The notes beneath the pieces were generated by a model. It searched no databases. It saw only the letters and a list, made by a program, of their open reading frames with translations, and was not told where the DNA came from. From the NCBI GenBank assembly GCA_963666425.2, contig OY762825.2, forward strand, positions 2,016,001 to 2,080,000: a stretch of 64,000 nucleotides of DNA, written 5' to 3'. The position numbers and the translations under genes were made by a program. This document shows, one piece after another, positions 1-14,508 of the stretch. The DNA is from Bacillota bacterium (lineage in GTDB: Bacteria > Bacillota > JAAYKD01). Each line of letters starts with the position of its first letter. Within the stretch, counting starts at the first letter, position 1.

Positions 1-190
1 ATCAGATAAACTAAAAGACGTTCCCTATGAATTACTGGCTCAAGAACTTGAGAAGCGAATGATAAAGATTGAATTGCATGAAGTTAACCATCTGCGTGAC
101 GATTCGGAATATTCGGATAAATTGGACTACTTACAACGCGTGTATGATGAATTAAAGTTTGTACTTGATGAAGTGCATGGAGTGAATTAA
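1..190 (+). CDS. 3' end of an ORF truncated by the window edge (first visible gene of the operon)
   Basis: Open frame from base 2 (SDKLKDVPYELLAQELEKR...DEVHGVN) to TAA at 188-190, 2 bp before the next ATG. Confidence 0.7.
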   Translation, partial: SDKLKDVPYELLAQELEKRMIKIELHEVNHLRDDSEYSDKLDYLQRVYDELKFVLDEVHGVN

Positions 191-192
191 TA

Positions 193-600
193 ATGAGTGA
201 ATCTGCACAGCATCAACAACTTGTACAGCTTATCATTAGCGATGTAATATATACTGTCGGTCAAGATCACAATTGCTTTATATCTTCTGATGCTGTTGAC
301 GAATTTTCACTTTCTCCTTATACCGAAGAAGGATTTCGACCTGATTTGTTCTATTTATTCAAAGATCATCTCATCATCGGTGAAGCTAAAACAAGTGATG
401 ATATTGAAAGAATACATAGCAAGCAACAATATGAATCATTTATTCGTAAATGCTCACTTTTTGAAGGTAGTGCTATATTTATCGCTGCAGTACCTTGGAA
501 GGATCACGCAACAATTCACAATATTCTTCAGAAAATCCGCAAGAAATATCCCGGTAATTACTTAATTAAGATATTGGATGGCATCGGGGGAACGATATGA
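193..600 (+). CDS. Small PD-(D/E)xK nuclease-fold protein
   Basis: FRPDLF...IIGEAKT matches the PD...ExK catalytic motif; ATGA overlap with the helicase gene. Confidence 0.7.
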   Translation: MSESAQHQQLVQLIISDVIYTVGQDHNCFISSDAVDEFSLSPYTEEGFRPDLFYLFKDHLIIGEAKTSDDIERIHSKQQYESFIRKCSLFEGSAIFIAAVPWKDHATIHNILQKIRKKYPGNYLIKILDGIGGTI

Positions 601-2087
601 AAAAAGTTCATTTGATAAAAGAGCCGAGTCTACTGGCAAAATATGATGCCTTTCCATATCAACGAGAAGCGTTTGAGGCTGTTAAGGACTTAGATTATGC
701 GGCGATTTTTCATGAACAAGGTTTAGGAAAGACAAAAATCGCGATTGACCTATTGCTCTATTGGTTAGGTAAAACATCCATAGATACTGTACTGGTAGTA
801 ACAAAAAAGCAACTCGTCCAAAACTGGATCCGAGAGTTCAAGATGCATACATCAATCGTGCCAACAGTATTGAATACAGATAAACAAAGTAATTACTATG
901 TATTTTCTGGGCCGACAAGAGTTGTTGTTACTAATTTCGAACTGTTGATAGTAGAAAAAGAGCGTTTTAAACTATATTTAAACACGCGCAATGTAGCTAT
1001 CATAATTGATGAATCGGCCAAGTTGAAAAATCCTGATGCTAATTTAACAAAGGCCTATTTTGAATTAGCACCTCAATTTAAAAAAAAAGTAATTATGACC
1101 GGTACTCCCGTTGCTAATCGACCATATGACATTTGGTCGCAGATTTTCTTTCTAGATCAAGGCGCAAGCTTGGGAACGGATTTCAAGGCTTTTAAGCGGC
1201 AAACAGACTTAAATAATAAACTTTCGAATGACGAAGAATTGCAAAAGGGTTTTGAGAATATTGTCTCAAATATACATGATAAAATCAAGAATTTCTCTGT
1301 ACGCGAAATAAAAAGTAGCGGAATCATTGAATTGCCGGACAAAATCTATATTCGAGAAGAAACTGAATTTACTCCGGAGCAGGAAGAGCTATATGATAGA
1401 ATATGTGATGAGCTGAAAATTGAAGTTATAAAAGCAGGGCAGGTAATTGAAGATGACTCCACAGCATTAGTAAAACGGCTTTTGCGTTTAGTTCAAGTAA
1501 CTTCAAACCCATACCTTGTAGATGAGTCATATAAAGGGAAATCGGCAAAGGAAACTGTTTTAGATTCTTTATTACATCACATCGTTGATGCTGGTGAGAA
1601 ATGTATTGTATGGACTAATTTTATCGATAATGTTGAGCAGTTTACAAAGACTTACTCCAAATATGGGAGCGTCAAAATTCACGGCGGCATGAAAATTACT
1701 GATCGAAACCGCTCCGTTGAACGATTTCGGACAGAAGATTATAAGGTGATGTTTGCGACACCTGCATCAGCTAAAGAAGGCTTAACGTTGACAATGGCAA
1801 ATCATGTTATTTTCTATGATCGAGGTTTTAGTTTGGATGACTATCTACAAGCGCAAGATAGGATCCACCGAATATCCCAGAAAAAAACGTGTTATATCCA
1901 TAACATCATAATAAACAGAAGCATTGATGAATGGATTGATGTATTGTTAAAATCTAAGCAAAACGCTGCATCCTTAGCTCAGGGAGACATTTCGTTAAAG
2001 GAATATAGAAAAGTGGCAGATTACAGTTTTGGAGACTTAATCAAAACAATATTATCCACAAATCAGGAGGGCAAAGAATATGAGTAA
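597..2087 (+). CDS. SNF2-family SF2 helicase/translocase
   Basis: Motif I HEQGLGKT, II IIDES, III MTGTPVAN, V EGLTLT, VI QAQDRIHRISQ. Confidence 0.92.
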   Translation: MKKVHLIKEPSLLAKYDAFPYQREAFEAVKDLDYAAIFHEQGLGKTKIAIDLLLYWLGKTSIDTVLVVTKKQLVQNWIREFKMHTSIVPTVLNTDKQSNYYVFSGPTRVVVTNFELLIVEKERFKLYLNTRNVAIIIDESAKLKNPDANLTKAYFELAPQFKKKVIMTGTPVANRPYDIWSQIFFLDQGASLGTDFKAFKRQTDLNNKLSNDEELQKGFENIVSNIHDKIKNFSVREIKSSGIIELPDKIYIREETEFTPEQEELYDRICDELKIEVIKAGQVIEDDSTALVKRLLRLVQVTSNPYLVDESYKGKSAKETVLDSLLHHIVDAGEKCIVWTNFIDNVEQFTKTYSKYGSVKIHGGMKITDRNRSVERFRTEDYKVMFATPASAKEGLTLTMANHVIFYDRGFSLDDYLQAQDRIHRISQKKTCYIHNIIINRSIDEWIDVLLKSKQNAASLAQGDISLKEYRKVADYSFGDLIKTILSTNQEGKEYE

Positions 2088-3072
2088 GATTACAATTGGG
2101 AAAACTGAATATGAATTTAAAGAGGAGCTTCTTGATCAGTGTCAACTCCTCTTCTATGAAGAGAATCCCCGTGTCTACTCTATTCTTAGGGCGAATGGTT
2201 CTATTCCAACGCAAAATGGAATAGAAGAACAGTTGACTTCTATGGATCATGTTAAGCAATTGCGTCTATCAATTGAGCAAAACGGAGGTTTGATAGATCC
2301 CTTAATGGTTGTGAAACGTAAAGGGGACTATGTTGTATTGGAAGGTAATAGCCGGCTTGCAGCTTATCGACTACTTGCGGTAAAAGATCCAATCAAATGG
2401 CAAAAAGTGAGAACACATTTACTTCCTGAAGAAATATCTGACAATGATATTTTTACGCTCTTAGGGCAATATCATCTTATCGGACGCAAAGATTGGAGTG
2501 TGTTTGAGCAAGCTGCATACCTATATCGGCAAAAAAAAACCTCACAATTAGAAAATGACATACTCGCGAAAAATGTAGGTTTGACTGAAAGCAAGGTATA
2601 TACATATATCAGCGTGTATACTTTTATGCTTGAGCATGATGATTTGCGACCGGATAGATGGAGCTATTATGAGGAATATTTAAAAAGCAGAGGAATTAGA
2701 AAATATCGTGATACCAATCCTGAAATAGATGAAGTGTTCGTAAAACAAGTAAAAAACAGAAAAATTAAACAAGCCATGGACGTACGTACTGTCCTTGGAG
2801 AAATTGCAAAATCTGGAGATAAAATTGCGAAGAAGATTATGCAGGGCATAATTAATGATGGAACGGACATTTACGATGGTCATGAAAAACTTAAAGTAAC
2901 TGGCAAAACAAGCAATGGTTATCAAAGAATCAAGAGATTCCATGAATTAGTAGCTGATGATGACTTTCAAAAAGTGTTAAAACTTGAGGCTACATCAAAT
3001 GCATCCATTGCTTTTGAACTCAAAAAGATACAAAAAGCTGTTGATAAATTACTAAGGGATATCTCCAAGTAA
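2080..3072 (+). CDS. ParB/Srx N-terminal domain protein
   Basis: ENPR motif, SIEQNGGLIDPLMV and VLEGNSRLAAY (ParB GxxR motif), followed by an HTH-like segment; overlaps the helicase stop. Confidence 0.85.
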   Translation: MSKITIGKTEYEFKEELLDQCQLLFYEENPRVYSILRANGSIPTQNGIEEQLTSMDHVKQLRLSIEQNGGLIDPLMVVKRKGDYVVLEGNSRLAAYRLLAVKDPIKWQKVRTHLLPEEISDNDIFTLLGQYHLIGRKDWSVFEQAAYLYRQKKTSQLENDILAKNVGLTESKVYTYISVYTFMLEHDDLRPDRWSYYEEYLKSRGIRKYRDTNPEIDEVFVKQVKNRKIKQAMDVRTVLGEIAKSGDKIAKKIMQGIINDGTDIYDGHEKLKVTGKTSNGYQRIKRFHELVADDDFQKVLKLEATSNASIAFELKKIQKAVDKLLRDISK

Positions 3073-3099
3073 TATTCTTTCGAAAGGGTCTACGACTAT

Positions 3100-5145
3100 A
3101 TGAGTAATATTTTGCTAATTGAACCGAATTATAAGAATAAGTATCCACCACTTGGACTTATGAAGATTTCGTATTTCCATAAACATTTTCTTCATGATTA
3201 TGTTCGCTTTACCAAAGGCGAGCTACCTCCAGCATTAGCAAATACAAAATGGGACCGTGTCTATGTGACTACACTCTTCACATTTGAATGGGCGAATACA
3301 ATTGCGTCAATCGAATACGCAAAGACATTGGTTGATTCTTTAGAGAAAATTACAATAGGTGGTATTGCTGCGACTATGCTACCCGATCAGATATACAAAG
3401 AAACTGGTATTCATCCAGTTTGTGGTTTATTAAATCATCCTGGTAAGTTAGGAATATTAGGCGATGAGTGCATAGACCAAATTGTTCCAGATTATTCAAT
3501 CCTCGATGATGTCGATTATGTATATCCATTTAGTGATGCCTACTTTCTCAGTGCAACCAAAGGGTGCGGTAACAAATGCGGCTTCTGCGCTGTCCAAACT
3601 CTTGAACCCACTTATGTTCCATACATAGATATCAAGGAAAAAATTACAGCTATTGACTGTGAGTTCGGGTCAAAAAGAGATCTCTTATTAATGGACAATA
3701 ATGTGTTACGTTCACCAGACTATGATCAGATCATTGATGATATTATTGTTGCTGGCTTTGGTAAAGGTGCGACTTATGTTAATCCAAGAACAAATAAAAC
3801 CGTTCGCAGATATGTTGATTTTAATCAGGGTTTAGATGCTATGTTCCTTAATGAAACAAAAGCAATGCGTCTTGGAGAAATAGCGCTAAAAACTGCCAGA
3901 GTAGCTTTTGATCATATTGAAGACCAGCAAACATATGAGAACGCACTGTGTTTGTGTGCGAAGTATGGTATTACAGAGTTATCAAATTATGTTTTGTACA
4001 ACAGCGAGAATTTTGGTGGAAAAGGTCACCAATATGCCGCAGATACTCCAGCTAATCTATATGATAGAATGCGTATTACCTTAGATATTAAAGAAGAAAT
4101 TAATAAAAAGCTTCTCGTAAGTGAACGCGTCAGCGCATTTTCTTTCCCGATGAGATACATACCTCTTTCTGCTCATGAACGAGGCTATATTGGCTCTCAA
4201 TGGAACGCCAAATTTTTGCGCGCAGTTCAATGTATGCTTATACCAACTCAGGGTAAGGGAGTCGGTAGTCGGTCTTTCTTCGAAGCGGATTTTGGCAAAG
4301 ACTCTGATGAATTCGTGCGCTTTTTATGTATGCCCGATAAGCTGATTGCTGCACGTGGTAATCTTAGCTCTGGAGGTCGTGGTAGAACAAGTGAAACAGA
4401 AGAAGAATTTAATACTCGTAAAAATGCTTGGGAAAAAAACCAACGGAAAATTGCTGAGTGGAATCGTCTATATGATCAACTCGGGGAAGAGAAAGAAAGC
4501 TTCATCACGTTTATAAGCGATAATGAATTTTTGCCTGAGAAATTTCTTGGCATTTCGTCGATAGCTCAAAAGAAACTATATTTATTCTACTTGACTACCC
4601 CACGTATTTTGTCTTTGTTTGGATTTCTAAGCCCAAACTCACCAACCTCTAGCATCGTTTATGACTATATAACCAATGAATTTCCAGCTATGTATCAAGA
4701 TGTGCTGATATTTGTTTGTGAAAGTGAAACGCAACAACAGTATATTTTTAGAAACTTTCTTTCTTTCTTTGGGAAGGAGGGTGTGTCCAATATCTTGCAT
4801 GTTCTCGCAGAAATCGATTTTTCTGCCGACAAACAATTACGGAAGTGGAATATCTTTTGCAAAAAAAAGGGTATATGGTTTATTGATTTTGAGCTTATCA
4901 GAGTATATAGAAGATACATCGATGTACATGTCTTCAATAAATCAGATCATCAAAGTGCAAAAAATGCGATATTAAGAATGGATATGCCCGAATTAGCTTC
5001 AATACTTGAGAGGAATTTTTTGAGCTTTAAAAATAACATTGCCTCAACTCTCAGCAATGAAAAAGGGCAGAAGATTTTAACAAATGCGACGAAATCGATA
5101 TTTAGTAATATCCAAATAAAGTTGTCGCGTGTTATGGAGGAATAA
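3100..5145 (+). CDS. Radical SAM protein with putative cobalamin-binding N-terminal domain and long C-terminal extension
   Basis: CGNKCGFC (CxxxCxxC); N-terminal LIEP..YPPLGLMKIS and IGGIAAT resemble B12-binding radical SAM proteins; MDNN and DFNQGLD core motifs. Confidence 0.88.
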   Translation: MSNILLIEPNYKNKYPPLGLMKISYFHKHFLHDYVRFTKGELPPALANTKWDRVYVTTLFTFEWANTIASIEYAKTLVDSLEKITIGGIAATMLPDQIYKETGIHPVCGLLNHPGKLGILGDECIDQIVPDYSILDDVDYVYPFSDAYFLSATKGCGNKCGFCAVQTLEPTYVPYIDIKEKITAIDCEFGSKRDLLLMDNNVLRSPDYDQIIDDIIVAGFGKGATYVNPRTNKTVRRYVDFNQGLDAMFLNETKAMRLGEIALKTARVAFDHIEDQQTYENALCLCAKYGITELSNYVLYNSENFGGKGHQYAADTPANLYDRMRITLDIKEEINKKLLVSERVSAFSFPMRYIPLSAHERGYIGSQWNAKFLRAVQCMLIPTQGKGVGSRSFFEADFGKDSDEFVRFLCMPDKLIAARGNLSSGGRGRTSETEEEFNTRKNAWEKNQRKIAEWNRLYDQLGEEKESFITFISDNEFLPEKFLGISSIAQKKLYLFYLTTPRILSLFGFLSPNSPTSSIVYDYITNEFPAMYQDVLIFVCESETQQQYIFRNFLSFFGKEGVSNILHVLAEIDFSADKQLRKWNIFCKKKGIWFIDFELIRVYRRYIDVHVFNKSDHQSAKNAILRMDMPELASILERNFLSFKNNIASTLSNEKGQKILTNATKSIFSNIQIKLSRVMEE

Positions 5146-5146
5146 C

Positions 5147-6673
5147 ATGAGCAACATTGTAATCGGGAAACACACGCTAGAATCGCTTACTTCGGGAATG
5201 TATTTAGATCCATATGTTATTTTTCGTGAGTATATTCAAAATGCTGCAGATTCTATTGATGAAGCCATTAAATCTGGTATCCTGAAAAGCGGTGAAGATA
5301 AGGTAGAGATAAACCTTTCTCCTTCTGAGTGTAAGATAGCTATTCGTGATAATGGTGCTGGTATTTCATCACTTATTGCCGAGAAATCATTAATCAGTAT
5401 AGGCAACTCTAAAAAAGTTTCTGGCAGTTCACGAGGGTTTAGGGGGATAGGTAGATTGTCAGCCCTAAGTTATTGCACTAAGCTAACATTCGAAACAAGT
5501 GCTTATGGTGAAAAGAGTGGAACAAGAGTTATTTTCAATGCAAAAAAGCTATCTGAATTGCTTGCTTCAAATGAAAGAGATGATCTTTCGGCGATAGATG
5601 TATTACTCAATATATACAAGATGGAAACATTTGTTGAAAAGGAAAACTCACACTATTTCTGCGTTTGTTTAGAAGGTGTAGACGAGAAATCCAAATTAAA
5701 TGAATATGACGAAGTTATGTCTTATATTTCTCAAAATGTCCCAGTGCCATATGATCCAGATGGTTTCATTTTGGGGAAGGAAATTTACCGCCGACTAAAT
5801 CAGGAAAAACTCGCTATACACCAATATAATGTTTTTGTTACATATGGAAATAAAACAATATCAATATTTAAGCCTTATAAAGATGAATTTCTAGTTGATA
5901 AAGGCAAAAACTTAATTGATAAAATAACCGACATTAACATTATAAAAATCAAACAAGCTGATGGGTCCATTTTTGCCATTGGATGGATTGCGAAAACAAA
6001 CTACCTAGGTAGTATTTATGATAAAACAATCAAGGGAATACGGCTACGCAAGGGGAATATTCTTATCGGAGATAGTCAAACACTCAATGTTATTTTTAAA
6101 GAAGGTCGGTTTAATGGTTGGGCAATTGGCGAAATATTCGCGATTGATTCAAAGTTAATTCCAAATGCGCGGAGAGACAACCTGGAAAAAAATACTGCAT
6201 ATTTCAAGCTATTTGAGCAATTGACGCCGATAGCAAGTAGTATTACAAAGGAAATTAGATATGCATCGTTAAACAGAAGCATAGAATTATCAAATATATT
6301 AAACCAGTCTGAGCAAGTGGCAATGTTGGCAAATGATGCAATTCAGGAAGGTTTTAGCAGTTCTAAAAAAAGTGTGATTAAGCAAAGCATTACTAATATG
6401 CAATCGGTCATAGCCAATTCCAACCTGAATAGTGATACTGATGTTTATTATCAGGAAATTGCTTTTGAAGAACTTGATATGCTTATCGGAAAACTACAGG
6501 GGTTAACATCCTTTAAAGCAATTAATGCTATTAAGGGCTTGACAAAAACAGAAAAGAAAATTCTCGAAAGAGTATTCAATGTTATTCTTTTTATTGATAA
6601 AGATCATTCCGATGTAACAATTGATGCTATACTTGAAAGTTTCTCTACGCGTGATGATTCGTCTTTGGAATAA
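5147..6673 (+). CDS. GHKL (HSP90/MutL/MORC-like) ATPase
   Basis: N-box REYIQNAADS, G1 DNGAGI, G2 GFRGIGRLS; PNARRD motif; GGAGG RBS before ATG 5147. Confidence 0.88.
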   Translation: MSNIVIGKHTLESLTSGMYLDPYVIFREYIQNAADSIDEAIKSGILKSGEDKVEINLSPSECKIAIRDNGAGISSLIAEKSLISIGNSKKVSGSSRGFRGIGRLSALSYCTKLTFETSAYGEKSGTRVIFNAKKLSELLASNERDDLSAIDVLLNIYKMETFVEKENSHYFCVCLEGVDEKSKLNEYDEVMSYISQNVPVPYDPDGFILGKEIYRRLNQEKLAIHQYNVFVTYGNKTISIFKPYKDEFLVDKGKNLIDKITDINIIKIKQADGSIFAIGWIAKTNYLGSIYDKTIKGIRLRKGNILIGDSQTLNVIFKEGRFNGWAIGEIFAIDSKLIPNARRDNLEKNTAYFKLFEQLTPIASSITKEIRYASLNRSIELSNILNQSEQVAMLANDAIQEGFSSSKKSVIKQSITNMQSVIANSNLNSDTDVYYQEIAFEELDMLIGKLQGLTSFKAINAIKGLTKTEKKILERVFNVILFIDKDHSDVTIDAILESFSTRDDSSLE

Positions 6674-6766
6674 GAAGCAGTAATTCTTTGCTCAACGAAT
6701 AAGTTGTCAGAAATAGTATATTTTCGATTGCTTGCCAACTAGAACATCCATTAAGGAGATATTTCA

Positions 6767-8008
6767 GTGGACGACGATAAAAAGAAATATTATGAAAATG
6801 AATATTTCATGCTCAAAGATGCTCATTTTCAAACTTCTCAAAGGATTACCACTTTTTTTCAATATGCATTATTAATATTTTCAGCGCCAATCGCGTTACT
6901 GACGTCGGTTGAAATTGACCAATTGCTTCTTGGAATAGTGTTTGCATTCATAGGAGTTGTAGGTCTATTTGTCATGCTTTATCTTTCTCGACTCAGAGTC
7001 GAATCTTTATTGTACGCAAGAGGCATTAATAGAATTCGTAGTATACTCTACACTTCCGGTCTTCTTGGAAGGGGAATTTATGAGATACATAAAGGTAAAG
7101 TGTTGCTCGCTCAAGATAAAAAGCCAGAATACTCTGATTGGCAACAATTTGGATTTATAGTTACTGTATTAGGTCTCTTTGATTCATTTTATTTCGCATT
7201 TGGCATAAATAAAATCATCTCGTCTCCAGGCATTTATTGTGAATGGATTATAAGGCACTTATTACTTATAACAGTAGTTATTGGTTTTTTTTGGTTATTG
7301 GTACATTTTTTCTTGCATAACTGGTGTAGTGAAGTCAGTGAGTATGGTAGTGATTATTATAAGAGGATAATTGGCGTAGACATTGATGGAGTACTAAACA
7401 AGCACGAAAAACAATTCGTTAAAATATTCAATCAGATTTATAGAAAAAGAAAATCAATTACTGTATCAGATATTACCACTTTGCCTGTTTCAGAATCGGG
7501 TATTGTTAATCGAACGGAAGAACACATGATATTCAACACCCTTGAATATTGGAGCGATATGCCAGTAAATGATCATGTTTTCGAAAATTTAATAGAAGAA
7601 ATTCGAAATAAACGTGGTTATAAGATATATATTTTTACTTGGAGAGATTGGGAGATATGCCGGAATATAAAGGGTGAATCAGTTACTAGTTCCATTAACA
7701 AGCAGACAAGAAAATGGCTTAAAGACAATGAAATATTGTACAATAAGTTACTTTTTGAAAAAGGGAATGTTGATCGTCCAGTTTCGTTATTCAATGTGAA
7801 ATATAAAACGAGATATTACTATTCAAAAAAATATAAAATTAGATATTTTGTTGAAGACACAGCAGAAAATGCGATTAAATTGTCTCATATTTGTGAATAT
7901 GTATTTCTGATTAACCATCAGTATAACGGAAATATTGAATTACCGTACAATGTTGTTCGAGTCGATGGTTGGGATGATATTCTCTACTGGATTAAGAAAT
8001 TTGAGTAA
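6767..8008 (+). CDS. Multi-TM N-terminal domain fused to HAD-family 5'(3')-nucleotidase-like domain
   Basis: About four hydrophobic helices in residues ~30-185; HAD motif I IGVDIDGV, motif II IFTWR, motif IV FVED; AAGGAG RBS. Confidence 0.8.
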   Translation: MDDDKKKYYENEYFMLKDAHFQTSQRITTFFQYALLIFSAPIALLTSVEIDQLLLGIVFAFIGVVGLFVMLYLSRLRVESLLYARGINRIRSILYTSGLLGRGIYEIHKGKVLLAQDKKPEYSDWQQFGFIVTVLGLFDSFYFAFGINKIISSPGIYCEWIIRHLLLITVVIGFFWLLVHFFLHNWCSEVSEYGSDYYKRIIGVDIDGVLNKHEKQFVKIFNQIYRKRKSITVSDITTLPVSESGIVNRTEEHMIFNTLEYWSDMPVNDHVFENLIEEIRNKRGYKIYIFTWRDWEICRNIKGESVTSSINKQTRKWLKDNEILYNKLLFEKGNVDRPVSLFNVKYKTRYYYSKKYKIRYFVEDTAENAIKLSHICEYVFLINHQYNGNIELPYNVVRVDGWDDILYWIKKFE

Positions 8009-8120
8009 ATACAATTTGAAACTTAGGTACTCTATTATGTACACCCCGGATAGAGCAAAATAATTGCGTTTTTACCTTTCCGAAATCTTCCGATGATTAC
8101 CGGAGCAGTTTGAGTCCCTT

Positions 8121-8172
8121 TTTGTCAATCGAAAAGTTGACAACTATGTTATTTGAAAAGTAGACCACCTGG
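8121..8172 (-). mobile_element. Degenerate orphan IS21 terminal repeat
   Basis: tttgtcaatcgaaaagttgacaac...gaaaagtagaccacctgg matches the reverse complement of the IS21 right end at 14541-14597. Confidence 0.65.
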
Positions 8173-8628
8173 AGGTGTGGATAAAATCCTGGGTCAGATT
8201 TATTTAGGCGGTATCGCATGTTCTCGTATTAAGATCGAGTCAAAGCCGTCAAGTAATAATTCAATATGATATGAGTTACCCAACCATAATTCGTGAGTTG
8301 GAATATCCTTCAAAACAATCCCTATGCAAGTGGGATGAAACCTTATCCGGGAAATCAATCGATAATTATAAGAGAATATGGCCTCAGTTTTGAATGCGTC
8401 TAGTGTAAATTACGAACCCTAAACATCACGCGCACGGACTAAAAACTCCAGTGAAACAGCATATTAATACCGGGCTCTCGGCGAAGTAATACCAGCCTAA
8501 CGGAAGAGAACTCAATTCTAGATACTTGATAAAAAATAAATCGAGTGGCATCATAATAATGCGTTAACTCATATACAGGATAGGGCAACGCTGAGGTGCG
8601 ACCTGAGTGGTATATGAGGTTTTGCGAG

Positions 8629-8662
8629 AGAGTGATGCCATGACGGTGTCACTCTTTTCTTT
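8629..8662 (+). terminator. Intrinsic terminator
   Basis: Stem agagtgatgcc / ggtgtcactct followed by a T-rich tract. Confidence 0.6.
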
Positions 8663-8955
8663 GCGTTTAAACGAGAAAACATCAGTATCACTCTCCTGGT
8701 AAAACCTAAGCGTTAAACCTTAGGGGTTCGGGGGCAACGCCCCCGGTAGTCAACTTTTACGAATCTATATCATCGAAACTTTTTAAGCCATGGCGTTCAT
8801 GCATAGATTTTATCCTGTTAATAATAAGACCAATAGAATGATACTTAAATAAAATGGTGCTCAGGTCCGTGATGGTGGAGCTATTTGACCGTGCACGTGG
8901 AATTCTTAAGGCGTAATCTACAGTAAACAACGGAAATTTGGAAAGGATGAAAACA

Positions 8956-9483
8956 ATGAGCTTTGAAGAGCAGGTTATGAGTGAGTATTTAAGTTTTGAT
9001 GCAATGAAGAATAATATTGAAACATTGCCTGATTGCCCGGGGAGTCTCATCATATTATTAAAAAATAAAAAAGTCTGTGATGCACTTTTCCCTAACGTTC
9101 AATTTCATTACTTACAAGGTTTGCCTATCATCTACGTCAGTATCACTAATCATGGGATATACGGTCGGTATAGGAATCATTTCCTTGGGACAGCCATATT
9201 CTCAACTTTAAGAAAAAGCATAGGAGCCTTGTTTCATTGGCACGATTACCGGGTGATTATGGCTGGCAATAGATACCATTTCGATGATTTACACGAAAGT
9301 GAATTAACCGAGTGGATGAAGAAGAATTTACTTTTCTTGTATAAGTGTGTTTTACCAGATGCCGATTTGGACATATGTAAACAATACCTTACCCAGGAGT
9401 TGAATCCACCGTTAAATATTAGCATGAATCATAATCCAGTAAATTCTCAATTTAGAGAAGAGCTAACAATGTTGAGAAGGTAA
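8956..9483 (+). CDS. GIY-YIG-fold nuclease-like protein
   Basis: PG..I / IIYVSIT..GRY..HF, STLRKSIG, C-terminal NPPLN; GIY and YIG motifs are degenerate. Confidence 0.65.
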   Translation: MSFEEQVMSEYLSFDAMKNNIETLPDCPGSLIILLKNKKVCDALFPNVQFHYLQGLPIIYVSITNHGIYGRYRNHFLGTAIFSTLRKSIGALFHWHDYRVIMAGNRYHFDDLHESELTEWMKKNLLFLYKCVLPDADLDICKQYLTQELNPPLNISMNHNPVNSQFREELTMLRR

Positions 9484-9649
9484 CTAACGAACTCGCCAAT
9501 ATGAACCTTTTTATTCAGTTGAGTGTTGCTGCCAAGTAGCTTTGGCCGCAAACTGACAGGAACTTTTGGCCTCACTTTGACAGCAATCGTGACCGCTTGA
9601 GGGTAAGCAGGTTGGCGGTGCCAACCTGCTTCGCAAAATCCAAAAGGAC

Positions 9650-10121
9650 TTAACTCATTTCACCTTCAATCACCAGACGAACCATATGGTCATCAATAAT
9701 CCGGTGTTTACCAGTTGCACCATACAGCAAACAATTGGTGCAGAGCTTGTTAATCAGGCGCGGGATACCGGTAGAATAAAGATAGATCTCCTGGACCGCC
9801 GCATCGGTAAAGAGATCCCGCTCCACTCCAGCACAGCGTAACTGGCTATGGATAAACGCGGCTGTTTCGGCTTTATCCAATGGCTGTAAGCGGCATAGAA
9901 TATCAATGCGCTGCCGGATGGCCGCAAAGGCTTTCAGCTCCAGCCGGTTCCATAATTCACTTTGACCTACCAAAATCAGAGCGAATAGCGAACAGCTGAT
10001 GCTCCGCCGCGTAGCGCAAGCGCCCCAGGGTTTCTTCCAGCATGCCGCTGGGGTAGAGTGACTGAGTCGTAATTTCTCGGGAAAACGGCGTTCTTTCGCA
10101 TTGGTAGAAGCTTTCATACAT
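9650..10121 (-). pseudogene. ExeA-like AAA ATPase (transposition helper), internally deleted and frameshifted
   Basis: Start MYESFYQCERTPFSREI at 10121 joins out of frame to FALILVGQSELW...GIPRLINKLC; Walker A/B region missing. Confidence 0.8.
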
Positions 10122-10596
10122 GGCGGTCTTCTCCTAAATCACGAAAGGAAATGGCAGTCTTTTGTTGCTTTTCCCGTATTTGGTTTTTCAGCTTCGCCGC
10201 TGTCAGATACCGAGATTGAGCAGGCTGCTCCACTTTACCCGCAGGTAAGACAGGTCGGATAGCGGACCTTGAACCTATTTGTAACGGTTTAGCGGTAAAA
10301 CGCGGCAGGCCGTCGGCTTCTACCCAGAGCAGATCCGGGGTTTGGCTGTCGTAGAGTAGTGTGACTTTACGACCAACCAAGAGTAAGCCATACTCCAACT
10401 CGTATTTTTTACCGTTGAAGCTAATACAACCGGCTTTGTCTACTTTGCGTTGTTCTACCCGTAGAAAGGCTTCTGCCAAGCTTTCGCTGGCAATAAAGCG
10501 TAAGGGTTCGCTGTCTTGCCGGAAGGCCAAAGCCGGCGAAGTCTTACCTCCTAAACCACGGTGCGGCCGATTTTGGTAGCATTCCGCTAACCAAAC
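10114..10596 (-). pseudogene. C-terminal fragment of a Mu/IS481-like DDE transposase
   Basis: YQNRPHRGL...RKVDKAGCISFNGKKYE; overlaps the ExeA start; N-terminal part absent. Confidence 0.75.
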
Positions 10597-10714
10597 CAGT
10601 CTATTTCTATCTCGTAACCGGGTTTGTGTTCAAGGTGCATTGTAGCCTTATTACGCTGCACATATTCGTAATAATGATGCCTAAACTGGGTATAGCCGTA
10701 TGGAATTTGTGTTT
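10597..10714 (-). pseudogene. istA: Internal fragment of an IS21-family (IS408-like) istA
   Basis: Minus strand reads QIPYGYTQFRHHYYEYVQRNKATMHLEHKP-frameshift-GYEIEIDW. Confidence 0.65.
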
Positions 10715-10793
10715 TGTCAAGAAGAAATCCCTGAAATTATCAAGGTAAATTCCCGGAAATAATCACGAGCAATCCCGAGAAAAATCATCGAGG

Positions 10794-11552
10794 TTATTTA
10801 ACAGATTGACGCATCAAAGCATGAGTCATCCGGTAGCTTTGGCCCTCAAAAATCAGAAGGTGACCATGGTGAACCAAACGGTCAATCATGGCAGCAGCCA
10901 TTTGCTCATCCGTGAAAATACCACCCCATTTGGAAAATTCGAGGTTCGTTGTGAGGATCAAGCTTTTACTCTCGTAGCTGTCAGCAACTACCCGAAAGAG
11001 CAATTGAGAACCTTCCTTATCAACCGGAATATAGCCCCATTCATCGAGAATCAGAAGATCCAGATTTATCAAATCACGCACCAAACGTTCCAGCGTGCCG
11101 GATCTGTGTGCCTCTCCCAGTTTTAAAACAAGTTCTGTCACTGTGAAGAAACGCACATTCATCCCCATCTCGCAGGCTTTGACACCCAAAGCAATGGCCA
11201 AGTGCGTTTTACCGATTCCTACCGGACCATAAAGAATCAAGTTTTTCTTTTCCGCAATAAAGCGGCAGCTTAGAAGTTCTTCTTTTGTTAGGGATGGCGG
11301 GAGGCGCATTACATTGAATTCATAATCGGCGAAACTTTTCAGGACTGGAAAGCAAGCTCGATTCAACTGTCTGGTTCGTCGGTTCCTTTCTCGCTTCAAA
11401 ATCTCCTCTTCAAGCACGTAAGCGAGGAACTCCTCTTGTTTTGGTGTTGCTTTTTGCTCACACAATTCCACCATTCGCTGCGAAAGAATCAGCTTTTTAC
11501 AACTAGCTGAAATGGAGTCGCGAGCCGCGCTGCGCGCCTTCGTGTTAAGCAT
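10794..11552 (-). CDS. istB: IS21 helper ATPase IstB
   Basis: GPVGIGKT Walker A, LILDEWGY, TTNLEFSKW, DRLVHH. Confidence 0.93.
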   Translation of the reverse strand: MLNTKARSAARDSISASCKKLILSQRMVELCEQKATPKQEEFLAYVLEEEILKRERNRRTRQLNRACFPVLKSFADYEFNVMRLPPSLTKEELLSCRFIAEKKNLILYGPVGIGKTHLAIALGVKACEMGMNVRFFTVTELVLKLGEAHRSGTLERLVRDLINLDLLILDEWGYIPVDKEGSQLLFRVVADSYESKSLILTTNLEFSKWGGIFTDEQMAAAMIDRLVHHGHLLIFEGQSYRMTHALMRQSVK

Positions 11553-12277
11553 CGCGTTCACCCACCTGCAGAAGCTGGTCATAGGCAGTCAGATCGGGTC
11601 CTTTTTCCGGAGCGGTATGCAAGCCATAATTCATCATACGGGCAGCTAAGACAGCAGCATCGCAGAAATGGTGCCGATTCGTGCGAAATCCCTCCTCCAA
11701 AGCTTTTACTGCCGTATCAAAAGAATAAACCTTGCTCAATTCAGACAGGGTGCGCACCGTTTGCTTGAGATCTTCCCGGCAAAGAACATCCATATTGTCC
11801 CGCAAAGCAACCGGAATCATTTCACGCACACTGCTATTTTTCCAGGCGCCGACGTTCCTGGTCAAGGTTGCTAAGGTGGTGCGATAATCCAGGCTGTCCG
11901 TCCGTTCTTCACCAAATTTGCGGCTGTGGATGACAATCATCTCACCACGCTCGGCATAAATCTCTATGGTATGCGCTTTCACCCCGACCAAAAACTCGGT
12001 TCCACCGAATTCAGGGCAGGTAGAGTAGTAATGGCGGTCGTCCACTCTTACTTTGCCGTAACTGTCGGCATTGACGTAAATGAAACGGCAGACATTGGAC
12101 GGGTGTACCGGAAGTGATTTGAGCGCTTTGAGATCTTCTTCGAATAATTCATGAATGTATATGCTAATCTAAATGTTGACCAGTTTAGCACCGAATGCTA
12201 AACGAAAAGTTGACCACCTTGAGCCCCTTTCCTGTTATGATGTATTTGCGAGAAACATCAAGCAGGAGGAAAGGAAA

Positions 12278-13747
12278 ATGTACAAGATGGTCGATAAAGA
12301 GTATATCAGAAAACTGTATTACATGGAAGACTGGCCCATCAGGAAAATCAGTCGTCAGCTTCAGATATCACGTCAAGCCATCCGAAAAATGATAGAGGAT
12401 ACGGAAAAGCCAAAGTATGAAATTAAGAAAGAGCGGCCGGCACCGGTCATGGATCAGTATTTGGAAATATTGCGGCAATGGATTGAAGAAGACGAGAAAG
12501 CTCCGAAAAAACAAAGGCATACTGCGATACGAATGTATGAACGCTTAAGGGATGAACATAATTTTACCGGTGGCAGTTCAACCGTGAGACAGAGCGTTGC
12601 CAAATTGAAAAACAAAGTACCGGAAGTATTTATACCTTTAACGGCAGCACCGGGTGAACAGGTTCAGGTAGACTTCGGGCATGCACAAGTGGTGCTGGCC
12701 GGTCATGAACAGAAAGTAAATATCTTTTGCATGCGTTTGAAGCACAGTTCGGTACCCTTTGTTGTAGCTTTTCCAACAGAACGGCTGGAAGCCTTTTTGG
12801 AAGGACACGTTCAAGGTTTTGCTTACTTCGGTGGTGTGCCAAGAGAAGGTCTCTACGATAATGCGAAGACGCAGGTCGTGAAGATCTTAGAGGGGCCTTA
12901 CCGCCAAGAACACGAGGATTTCTCAAGTTTACGCTCTCACTATTTGTTTAACAGTCTTTTTTGCCGACCGAGAAAAGGTAATGAGAAAGGAGCGGTAGAG
13001 GGTCTGGTGAAGCAAGTACGCAGCCAAGCAATGGTTCCCGTGCCGGAATGCGAAAATTTGGAAGAACTTAACGCTTTATTACTGAATTGGTGTAAGAAAG
13101 AAAAATCAAGAAACCAAGAAAAGTGGTTAGCTGAACAGGCGCAATTACGTCCTTTGCCAGTAGAACCATACTCGGCAGCAAAAATAGTGGCTGCGAAGGT
13201 GAGTTCTTACTCACTGGTGACCATTGACCGAAACCGTTACTCCGTTCCCACAGAGTTTGTAGGAGAAAACTTATTTGTTAAAGCTTATGTGAATCGCATA
13301 GAAGTTCTGCACCGTAACCATGTTATTGCGACTCACAATCGCTGCTACGGTAGGAACCATACTTCTTTACAATTAGAGCATTATCTCAATGCCTTAGAGA
13401 AAAAACCACACGCGGTAACACATGCTACGGTGGTTCGCCAATTGCCTTTACCTTTTCAGCAGGTCAAAGAGAACATGGAGCAAGCGCACGGAACCGGCTA
13501 CAAAGATTTTTTACGAGTTCTTTTGTTAACACACGAGTATCCGTTGAATGAAATAGGTGCTGCGATTACCGACCTTGGGGCTTCTCGAGCCTGCGAAGAG
13601 ACCCTGAGACACTATTTACAAAGTAAACGAAACCCATTAGAAGAACAGCGAGACCCACAAAGACAACTCCTCACCAATGGGATTCCCCTGATCACCATAC
13701 AAGATACTCAACGCTATGATTTGTTGTTGCAGGGGGTGAGAGCATGA
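12278..13747 (+). CDS. istA: IS21 transposase IstA
   Basis: HTH, QVDFG, YDNAK, NEKGAVE DDE motifs; AGGAGG RBS. Confidence 0.95.
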   Translation: MYKMVDKEYIRKLYYMEDWPIRKISRQLQISRQAIRKMIEDTEKPKYEIKKERPAPVMDQYLEILRQWIEEDEKAPKKQRHTAIRMYERLRDEHNFTGGSSTVRQSVAKLKNKVPEVFIPLTAAPGEQVQVDFGHAQVVLAGHEQKVNIFCMRLKHSSVPFVVAFPTERLEAFLEGHVQGFAYFGGVPREGLYDNAKTQVVKILEGPYRQEHEDFSSLRSHYLFNSLFCRPRKGNEKGAVEGLVKQVRSQAMVPVPECENLEELNALLLNWCKKEKSRNQEKWLAEQAQLRPLPVEPYSAAKIVAAKVSSYSLVTIDRNRYSVPTEFVGENLFVKAYVNRIEVLHRNHVIATHNRCYGRNHTSLQLEHYLNALEKKPHAVTHATVVRQLPLPFQQVKENMEQAHGTGYKDFLRVLLLTHEYPLNEIGAAITDLGASRACEETLRHYLQSKRNPLEEQRDPQRQLLTNGIPLITIQDTQRYDLLLQGVRA

Positions 13748-14508
13748 GTCTTGATATAACCGAGGCTCAAATTGAGCTCTCTTGTAAACTTCTTCGCTTA
13801 CCAGGCTTGAAACAACAGTTTCGCGCTCTGGTTCGCGAAGCAAACGAAAGGAACCTGAATTGTAGTCAATTCTTGAAACTGTGCTTAGAACAAGAAATTC
13901 ACGATCGCCAGGTAAAGAAACAGCAAATTCTGCTTCGTCAGGCTAAATTCCCGGCAAAGAAGACCTTGGCGGATTTCGATTTTACGAAAATCCCGCAACT
14001 GCCAAAGAACAAAATATTAAAGCTTGCCGATTCCGAATATGTTAAGCGTAAAGAAAATATTATTTGTATTGGCAGAGCTGGAACGGGAAAAAGTCATATT
14101 AGCATTGCCTTGGGAATGGAAGCTTTACAAAAGGGTTTTCGAGTTCGGTTCATTTCAGTGATGCAGCTTTTGCAGGAAATTCAATTGGCTGAAGCGGAAT
14201 TCCGCTTACCCCGCTACTTAAAAGCATGGAACCGAGTCGATCTTGTTATTCTTGATGAACTTGGTTATCTCCCACTTGGGGAACAGGGTAAACTACTATT
14301 TCATTTTATCTCTCAACGTTACGAAACAGGAAGCTTGATAATAACCTCTAACTTAGAGTTTTCCCGCTGGGTTGAAGTCTTGCATGACCCAGCATTAACT
14401 TCTGCCTTGCTAGACAGACTGACTCACCATTCTAATATTATTCTTTTCGATGGAGAATCGTATCGCTTTCGCGAAAGCCTGGCTCGCCAGGCGGTGGATT
14501 TGAATTAG
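13744..14508 (+). CDS. istB: IS21 helper ATPase IstB
   Basis: GRAGTGKS, ILDELGY, TSNLEFSRW, LDRLTHH. Confidence 0.95.
   Translation: MSLDITEAQIELSCKLLRLPGLKQQFRALVREANERNLNCSQFLKLCLEQEIHDRQVKKQQILLRQAKFPAKKTLADFDFTKIPQLPKNKILKLADSEYVKRKENIICIGRAGTGKSHISIALGMEALQKGFRVRFISVMQLLQEIQLAEAEFRLPRYLKAWNRVDLVILDELGYLPLGEQGKLLFHFISQRYETGSLIITSNLEFSRWVEVLHDPALTSALLDRLTHHSNIILFDGESYRFRESLARQAVDLN

Follow-up and report, generated by a model that had tools for sequence, protein, structure and literature searches.

Radical S-adenosylmethionine (SAM) enzymes serve in immunity as viperins and, according to one preprint, in Ophion, where the enzyme is combined with PHP and PRTase proteins (bioRxiv 2025.09.30.679545). 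ATPases of the GHL/MORC type also have a place in immunity, in Tiamat, a single gene with no radical SAM enzyme. Outside immunity, class B radical SAM enzymes (QCMT/MgmA, TsrM, CysS, TokK, OxsB) have in common a Rossmann-like domain at the N-terminus, ahead of a partial TIM barrel with a CxxxCxxC motif. A 2026 review groups TokK, OxsB, TsrM and QCMT in a class (class I) with a cobalamin domain of five strands and five helices, and describes AprD4 and ArsL as having a related domain yet no bound cobalamin (PMC12931638). Here, we describe a gene for a radical SAM enzyme (rSAM) of class-B-like architecture that lies among genes for DNA-processing proteins in Bacillota bacterium (GTDB JAAYKD01), within a stretch of 64,000 nt—hereafter, the window—from assembly GCA_963666425.2 (contig OY762825.2, positions 2,016,001–2,080,000 of the forward strand). 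The gene is real and, together with an adjoining gene for a GHKL ATPase, probably forms the core of a defence system not described before.

An earlier, sequence-only reading of this locus had proposed a B12-dependent radical SAM enzyme flanked by a ParB-like gene and a GHKL ATPase gene, and profile matches bear out both neighbours; that the GHKL ATPase is an obligate partner was overlooked. Partners were surveyed at 80 related loci, the best of 307 confirmed loci, making 81 sources when the window is counted. A tblastn search with the window proteins placed a GHKL gene next to the rSAM gene at 72 of the 80 loci, while clustering of open reading frames (ORFs) placed one beside it in 76 of the 81 sources; among the eight tblastn misses, six were contig ends or partial GHKL ORFs, one locus (L040) had a split rSAM gene and one (L046) ended soon after the rSAM gene. 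The two genes are translationally coupled: the GHKL start overlaps the rSAM end by 17 nt in the window, and the overlap is 4 nt in the commoner order, where GHKL precedes rSAM (L012, for example). Pairwise distances between rSAM cores follow those between GHKL proteins (r = 0.91 across 61 loci, with none of 999 permutations as high), a correlation that speaks for co-inheritance as a unit and not for a physical complex.

Sequence motifs place the partner among the GHKL ATPases and make it look competent. Residues R33, E34, N38, D41, D74, G78, G103, G106 and G108 were invariant in all 30 sequences compared, and the ExxxNxxD, DxGxG and glycine-rich lid motifs are, we assume, those of the Bergerat fold. 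The family profile came closest to the N-domains of the Hsp90 family (HtpG/TRAP1; E 7e-13), and MzaB was the only PADLOC family matched by the protein from the window (E 0.006). Complex prediction for the GHKL protein and rSAM residues 421–681 gave a score of 0.00, which counts neither for nor against binding. At one locus (L051 5529–14147), two more genes, one cyclase-like and one for a further GHKL protein, come directly after a full NurA-HerA-GHKL-rSAM operon, with no second rSAM gene.

The rSAM protein has three parts (Table 1), which were delimited on an alignment-based AlphaFold2 (AF2) model with a mean predicted local distance difference test score (pLDDT) of 95.2 and a predicted template modelling score (pTM) of 0.90; single-sequence prediction gave a pLDDT of 33 and was unusable. 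The three cysteines of the CxxxCxxC motif, C156, C160 and C163, are kept in 78, 79 and 79 of the 79 rows of the family alignment, in which no other cysteine is conserved, so the motif noticed in the single sequence is not a chance occurrence. The Rossmann-like N-terminus named in the same reading, with its PPLGLMKIS and GGIAAT segments, corresponds in the model to an alpha/beta domain with four strands by DSSP (residues 3–8, 34–39, 53–58 and 84–88). Its helical C-terminal extension of about 250 residues is real too, since the model contains only helices over residues 434–680.

Assignment to the radical SAM superfamily is based on the cysteine triad, suited to a [4Fe-4S] cluster, and on the predicted fold. 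The window protein itself scored 18.2 bits against PF04055 (E 0.003), below the cut-off of 29.5 bits, and found no match to PF02310, NCBIfam or PADLOC families; the assignment thus leans on matches of the family and on the modelled fold, and not on the protein's own Pfam score. PF04055 was matched by 72 of the 79 family members at E ≤ 0.01 (best 1.1e-10) and the B12-binding family PF02310 by 18 of the 79 (best 1.6e-8), the window protein not being one of them. With no NCBIfam or PADLOC match and a Pfam match below cut-off, the family is unnamed in any library. It is nonetheless large: at least 6,660 proteins reached E ≤ 0.001 among 8,000 scored candidates (clusters at 90% identity), and at 50% identity there were 1,189 representatives at E ≤ 1e-3 and 211 at E ≤ 1e-30. 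Across 118 close homologues, identity to the query was 53% in the C-domain and 82% in the core, and a faster-evolving C-domain would fit a role in specificity or docking. A search of the ESM Atlas with the C-domain gave no usable match.

Fold comparison with Foldseek and VIA-align returned two-domain radical SAM enzymes as the top matches, all of them covering residues 1–420 only. AprD4 (6fd2) was the best match by VIA-align (Z 21.4, root-mean-square deviation 3.4 Å, 348 residues aligned), while QCMT/MgmA (9ccb) came second (Z 20.4) and was first in Foldseek; MtaB (Z 18.2), CysS (18.1), TsrM (17.9), MiaB (17.9), RimO (17.3) and OxsB (17.1) followed. Single-domain enzymes (viperin, SPASM enzymes, LipA) scored Z ~10, the viperins (Z 9.7–10.3) aligning to residues 145–388 only, and no PADLOC viperin model matched rSAM. 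A search of PDB sequences with the family profile found nothing better than QCMT/MgmA (9ccb), at E 0.014.

From the class B enzymes, rSAM differs in its extra helical domain, in a sequence match no better than E 0.014, in a context of defence and DNA processing instead of biosynthesis and in an N-domain with four strands by DSSP, against the five described for the cobalamin domain of class I in the review (PMC12931638). AprD4, whose structural match covers both N-domain and core, is only 11% identical and is a diol dehydratase that acts on an aminoglycoside with neither cobalamin nor a GHKL partner. MiaB, MtaB and RimO likewise combine a flavodoxin-like N-domain with a radical SAM core, HMMER aligned the LLLxDNN strand of the family to TLLGQNV of MiaB, and the substrates of these enzymes are nucleic acid (tRNA) or ribosomal protein; the C-terminus of rSAM, in contrast, is all helical, with no TRAM domain recognised. 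A methylthiotransferase was considered and rejected: residues 1–105 of rSAM contain no cysteine and none is conserved there in the family, from which it follows that the N-domain holds no auxiliary cluster.

Cobalamin users, a non-user and methylthiotransferases with an auxiliary cluster all stand among the top matches, so the fold alone cannot decide whether rSAM depends on cobalamin. The proposal of a B12-dependent enzyme stands in part: a radical SAM enzyme with class-B-like architecture is supported, and cobalamin may or may not be bound, the best match, AprD4, being free of it. The enzyme looks like class B and is a candidate for the cobalamin-dependent class; we give its use of cobalamin about an even chance.

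Table 1. Features of the rSAM locus and its surroundings; positions refer to the window unless another reference is given
Feature	Position	Strand	Size or residues	Remarks
Radical SAM enzyme (rSAM)	3100..5145	+	681 aa	Open ORF
rSAM Rossmann-like N-domain	3100-3414		residues 1-105	
PPLGLMKIS segment	3145-3171		residues 16-24	
GGIAAT segment	3358-3375		residues 87-92	
rSAM core	3535-4359		residues ~146-420	(beta/alpha)6-type partial barrel
Cysteine triad	3565-3588			C156-x3-C160-x2-C163
rSAM helical C-domain	4360-5142		residues 421-681 (260 aa)	
GHKL (Hsp90/MORC-like) ATPase	5129..6673	+	514 aa	GTG start; HATPase_c_3 E 1.3e-8
ParB-like protein A	2..190 (3' end)	+	330 aa	Starts 802 bases upstream of the window at G000:C1:2015198 (L082 11198-12190)
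PD-(D/E)xK-like protein, putative nuclease	193..600	+	135 aa	4-base overlap with next gene
SNF2-family helicase	597..2087	+	496 aa	PF00176 E 2.5e-29; Helicase_C 7.2e-20
ParB-like protein B	2080..3072	+	330 aa	Paralogue of ParB-like protein A
Accessory gene	6767..8008	+	413 aa	About four hydrophobic helices (predicted membrane), then HAD/NT5C-like nucleotidase domain
Phage holin gene	L082 738-1145			
Type I restriction-modification genes	L082 3330-10933 (G000:C1:2007330-2014933)			hsdM, hsdS, zinc-ribbon gene, 260-aa gene, hsdR
GIY-YIG nuclease gene	8938-9483			
IS21-family genes	9650-14508			
Mu-transposase C-terminal fragments	10114-10530, 11545-12045			
IstB	10794-11582	-		
IstA/IstB pair	12173-14508	+		Apparently complete
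Second rSAM-GHKL locus of this genome	G000:C1:1432900-1443350 (L087 7880-18352)	-		DrmA, DrmB, NERD helicase, rSAM, GHKL

Around this pair the remaining genes vary. Clustering of all ORFs from the 81 sources sorted the loci into architectures that we call types I to VI. Type I consists of genes for NurA-like and HerA-like proteins followed by GHKL and rSAM, the HerA-like gene being present at 41 of the 81 loci and the NurA-like gene at 38. The HerA-like profile matched the HerA of PDB entry 7f6d at E 4e-55; the NurA-like gene matched the NurA of the same entry at E 0.034 and one of its members matched PF09376. Type II (14 loci) places a protein of ~265 aa before GHKL and rSAM. Type III, with DrmA, DrmB, a NERD/UvrD helicase, rSAM and GHKL, was found at five loci (in one of which GHKL precedes rSAM) and at a second locus in the genome studied here. 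Type IV is the arrangement in the window—ParB-like A, the 135-aa protein, SNF2 helicase, ParB-like B, rSAM and GHKL—and recurs at three other loci (L001, L003 and L009). Type V, at four Bacteroidota loci, joins GHKL to the gene of an unknown protein (335 aa), usually in divergent orientation to rSAM, and type VI (L076 and L080) includes an NsnB-like ABC ATPase. No DNA methyltransferase was present among the conserved partner clusters of the 81 sources. The ~265-aa protein of type II (L010 7593–8381 and 13 other loci) found no match in Pfam or the PDB; it contains what we take to be class III nucleotide cyclase motifs, and its nearest Atlas clusters, useful as a lead only, included a PF00211 cluster (0.88) and one under the automatic name of guanylate-cyclase domain protein (0.97).

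On a quick maximum-likelihood tree of rSAM cores, partner types required 10 label changes against a mean of 26.4 when labels were shuffled, with none of 200 shuffles as low; partner types therefore cluster on the tree and the systems evolve as units. The clade of the window is sister to type III (Shimodaira–Hasegawa-like approximate likelihood-ratio test, SH-aLRT, 100%). The type III locus in the same genome encodes DrmA (1151 aa, 1.8e-155), DrmB (629 aa, 3.4e-52), a NERD helicase (543 aa), an rSAM of 670 aa that is 50% identical to the one in the window and an intact GHKL protein; a PDC-S01 candidate and an ABC ATPase gene adjoin it. Rhizobium plasmid pCC511_1 matches the type IV order gene for gene, its rSAM being 40% identical to that of the window, its first gene 40% identical to ParB-like A over 306 aa and a gene annotated as ‘ParB N-terminal domain-containing protein’, in the position of ParB-like B, 42% identical to it over 308 aa. 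A DGQHR/DndB-type gene is inserted before rSAM on this plasmid, and ParB-like B is not the counterpart of that gene. Novosphingobium plasmid pNL1 carries DGQHR, rSAM and ATPase genes in that order, and DndB/DGQHR genes lie directly beside rSAM on both plasmids and at loci L042 and L002. The ParB-like gene that the sequence-only reading had singled out belongs to a set of accessory modules that can replace one another.

In the window operon, ParB-like A matched PF02195 (ParB_N, E 2.7e-4), PADLOC PD-Lambda-5_A (5.4e-9) and ParB-like families of PHROG (~1e-6); ParB-like B, 31% identical to it over 128 aa, matched TIGR00180 (E 3.5e-4), ParB-like families of PHROG (3e-9 to 1e-6) and PADLOC PDC-M38A (4.6e-10). 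The 135-aa protein matched nothing in the libraries scanned, Pfam, PADLOC and PHROG among them; residues P50-D51 and G63-E64-A65-K66 were invariant in its four orthologues (4/4), from Bacillota and Alphaproteobacteria, a PD...GEAK pattern that is presumably the motif of the restriction-endonuclease fold. The SNF2 helicase matched ZorD (3.8e-47) and DpdE (1.8e-36) in PADLOC. Downstream of the pair, the 413-aa accessory protein reached PF06941 (NT5C) only below the cut-off (E 0.0078), PHROG 420 at 1.1e-6 and, over residues 198–411, a polynucleotide-kinase PHROG at 7.4e-5, with a DIDGV motif in its sequence. ORF clustering found a counterpart of its gene at none of the 80 other loci, and the protein may serve as an effector in its own right or as a back-up. 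Library scans, which did not extend to small peptide ORFs, revealed no transporter or biosynthetic gene in window positions 1–9500, in line with the sequence-only reading. A promoter and terminator scan was uninformative, with counts no higher than shuffled expectation.

The surroundings of the operon resemble those of a defence island (Table 1). GC content is 0.33–0.36 in window positions 1–8000 and 0.43–0.54 over most of the remainder, with a few blocks of 0.37–0.38 at 16–22 kb. The genes of a complete Type I restriction-modification system lie directly upstream and a phage holin gene farther upstream, GC content falling at ~L082 2000; downstream come a GIY-YIG nuclease gene and then IS21-family genes, whose pieces look like one element inserted in another. 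The rSAM family occurs in five of 101 genomes (this genome and 100 relatives), the present one included, and is absent from a same-genus genome. More widely, it occurs in Bacillota, Bacteroidota, Pseudomonadota, Acidobacteriota and Planctomycetota, in at least five system architectures, and homologues were found on 16 plasmid records and 12 phage records.

Flanks within 6 kb were scanned at 17 of 27 long loci against PADLOC at E ≤ 1e-10. Matches were found for 21 of 102 flank ORFs, with at least one at 15 of the 17 loci, and included Type IV and Type II restriction enzymes, DrmD, DpdF, a DRT reverse transcriptase and several PDC candidates. A Type IV restriction enzyme with PLD, helicase and DUF3427 domains (mREase_IV, E to 1e-224) adjoins the pair in several system types; this modification-dependent enzyme was seen at L003 6465–9473, L029 12010–14931, L031 and L047 9046–11436.

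Phage homologues are shorter. Marinitoga camini virus 1, a temperate phage (L085 6001–9827), encodes a 360-aa homologue of the rSAM core, with no C-domain and no GHKL gene, whose gene runs convergently to genes annotated as HerA and NurA-type. A 305-aa homologue in a Bacteroides LoVEphage (L086 2796–6633; PHROG 9298, E 4.6e-34) lies among PAPS-reductase and DNA-methyltransferase genes in what looks like a DNA-modification region of the phage. The C-domain is thus absent from phage homologues that have no GHKL gene.

Among known defence systems (models from PADLOC-DB v2.0.0), DISARM is the nearest to type III loci, which, like the second copy in this genome, have DrmA and DrmB directly upstream of the rSAM-GHKL pair. 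In contrast to DISARM, no DrmM methylase or DrmC was matched among the genes scanned at the second locus, where the NERD helicase and the pair stand in their place, and the window operon has neither DrmA nor DrmB, its lone DISARM match being a weak one of DrmD to the SNF2 helicase (1.1e-14). Membership of DISARM was accordingly rejected for both loci, as DrmC and DrmM are missing from the matches. The Dnd and Dpd systems share with the family the placing of ParB/DndB-family genes next to a putative modifying enzyme and the DpdE match of the SNF2 helicase, and a logic of modification plus restriction would be shared as well. DpdB offers an analogy to the ParB-like neighbours. Both systems differ in that PADLOC matches of the operon proteins to Dnd and Dpd components were limited to DpdE and DpdF, both on the SNF2 helicase, and in that the chemistry of rSAM would be radical-based. 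Viperins match only the core of rSAM, and weakly, while Ophion, which likewise employs a radical SAM enzyme in immunity, has other partners. The enzyme is not a methylthiotransferase, is probably not a viperin and matches no PADLOC system. Searches of open-access and bioRxiv literature turned up no account of an rSAM-GHKL system, although the supplements of PMC12458937 (on YprA) and of a preprint on modularity (>500 candidates) could list it; term searches within PMC2292703 (MORC), PMC10853773 (Dnd), PMC7159879, the Tiamat preprint and PMC12458937 met no mention of the pair.

Our leading explanation, advanced tentatively, is that rSAM is the catalytic subunit of an rSAM-GHKL core in a widespread, modular and undescribed DNA-directed system against phages or plasmids. 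Such a core would be unprecedented within modular helicase/nuclease defence systems. A DNA-directed role, whether in marking or damaging, is the best-supported reading by analogy with the neighbouring modules. A dimer of the GHKL ATPase would engage and hold DNA, on which rSAM, having reductively cleaved SAM, would act through the 5'-deoxyadenosyl radical, and cobalamin, bound in the Rossmann-like domain, may assist this DNA-altering step. The alteration might mark the cell's own DNA for protection or damage that of an invader; in the former case, the pair would fill the slot of DNA methylases or of Dnd/Dpd enzymes in DISARM-, Dnd- and Dpd-type systems. Beside NurA-HerA, too, it would stand where characterised relatives have an enzyme that modifies DNA. 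In the window, the two ParB-like proteins, the PD-(D/E)xK-like protein and the SNF2 helicase would track and cut DNA, and the fast-evolving helical C-domain would give specificity for a target or a partner. A bolder version, which we think unlikely as it stands, makes the pair a DNA-modification engine: a radical and possibly cobalamin-assisted enzyme, loaded by the GHKL ATPase as a clamp, that would give host DNA a carbon-centred mark of a non-canonical kind or inflict a lesion on the DNA of an invader. Exchangeable restriction modules (NurA-HerA, DrmAB or ParB-SNF2) would take the mark as their signal of self or non-self.

Several observations weigh against a DNA-directed system. The choice of DNA as substrate comes from the neighbours only. 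Type II, 14 of the 81 loci, combines the core with nothing more than the cyclase-like protein, without helicase or nuclease, and fits the logic of signalling and effector better than that of restriction-modification. Some accessory genes are of a nucleotide type—NT5C-like in the window, dCMP-deaminase-like at L042 and RelA/SpoT-like at L002—and a nucleotide substrate would suit them just as well. The C-domain has no strongly basic character (pI 8.4), and fold searches, in which all top matches cover residues 1–420, recognised no DNA-binding fold in it; the earlier suggestion that this domain supplies specificity agrees with its faster evolution and less well with its variability, which is only moderate and not mosaic, unlike that of the target-recognition domains of restriction-modification systems. 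The count of defence genes in the flanks was made without a background control and includes some matches to generic domains, and the distance correlation speaks for co-inheritance, not for a physical complex.

Several of the same observations lend themselves to a nucleotide-analogue effector akin to viperin or OxsB. Once infection had been sensed, by the GHKL protein or by a partner, rSAM would make a chain-terminating or toxic (deoxy)nucleotide, and the helicase and nuclease genes would be separate arms of the island. The fold matches include OxsB (Z 17.1), an enzyme whose substrates are deoxyadenosine phosphates, and radical SAM enzymes are already known in defence from viperins and Ophion (bioRxiv 2025.09.30.679545). 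The minimal variant of cyclase-like protein, GHKL and rSAM, with its lack of a nuclease, and the NT5C-like, deaminase-like and RelA/SpoT-like accessory genes point the same way. The viperin match, however, is confined to the core and far weaker (Z ~10 against 21), an enzyme for soluble nucleotides would have no need of operon coupling and cross-phylum synteny with DNA translocases and nucleases, and DndB/ParB-type neighbours are typical of enzymes that act on DNA. We consider such an effector unlikely, and yet it stays a serious rival to the DNA-directed system because type II loci lack nuclease and helicase, nucleotide-type accessories occur and the C-domain showed no recognisable DNA-binding fold.

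It is improbable, in our view, that rSAM modifies a protein, switching on or maturing the system by acting on the GHKL partner or on a partner nuclease or ATPase, much as QCMT/MgmA and Mmp10 act on methyl-coenzyme M reductase. That rSAM pairs strictly one-to-one and co-evolves with just one protein would suit an enzyme and its substrate, and QCMT/MgmA is the top PDB sequence match (E 0.014) as well as first in Foldseek and second in VIA-align. That likeness is indistinguishable, though, from the likeness to AprD4, MiaB and others, short homologues of phages and prophages occur without a GHKL gene, and we know of no precedent for a protein-modification step by a radical SAM enzyme in a defence system.

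Less probable still is a DNA-repair module for anaerobes, in which NurA-HerA would resect ends, the GHKL protein would be a MutL/Hsp90-like ATPase and rSAM would reverse lesions. NurA-HerA, a known machine for end resection, is indeed the commonest partner (HerA at 41 and NurA at 38 of the 81 loci), and spore photoproduct lyase is a radical SAM enzyme that acts directly on DNA, a precedent in favour of repair. Against it stand the patchy occurrence among related genomes (five of 101, with none in the same-genus genome), the low-GC island beside restriction-modification genes and insertion sequences, carriage on plasmids and a prophage, the defence-rich flanks and the swapping of partner modules. 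An ordinary class B enzyme of small-molecule or peptide biosynthesis, set among DNA genes by chance, is very improbable and was rejected: although most characterised two-domain enzymes act in natural-product or cofactor pathways according to the review (PMC12931638), a conserved biosynthetic, precursor-peptide or transporter partner was found at none of the 81 loci, where GHKL ATPase, HerA, NurA, DrmA/B, ParB-like and SNF2 proteins are the conserved partners, so that the setting among DNA-processing genes described for the window holds for its homologues too.

As a DNA-modification engine, the rSAM-GHKL pair would, if the bolder version is true, be a counterpart to restriction-modification, Dnd and Dpd based on radical SAM chemistry. 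If the pair acts on DNA, this chemistry would join the few routes by which bacteria mark or attack DNA as self or non-self, and it may reveal a new modification. The pair also offers an entry point to the roles of NurA-HerA and DrmAB modules in the absence of a methylase, and a very large unnamed family with an obligate ATPase partner is a defined target for defence-system screening.

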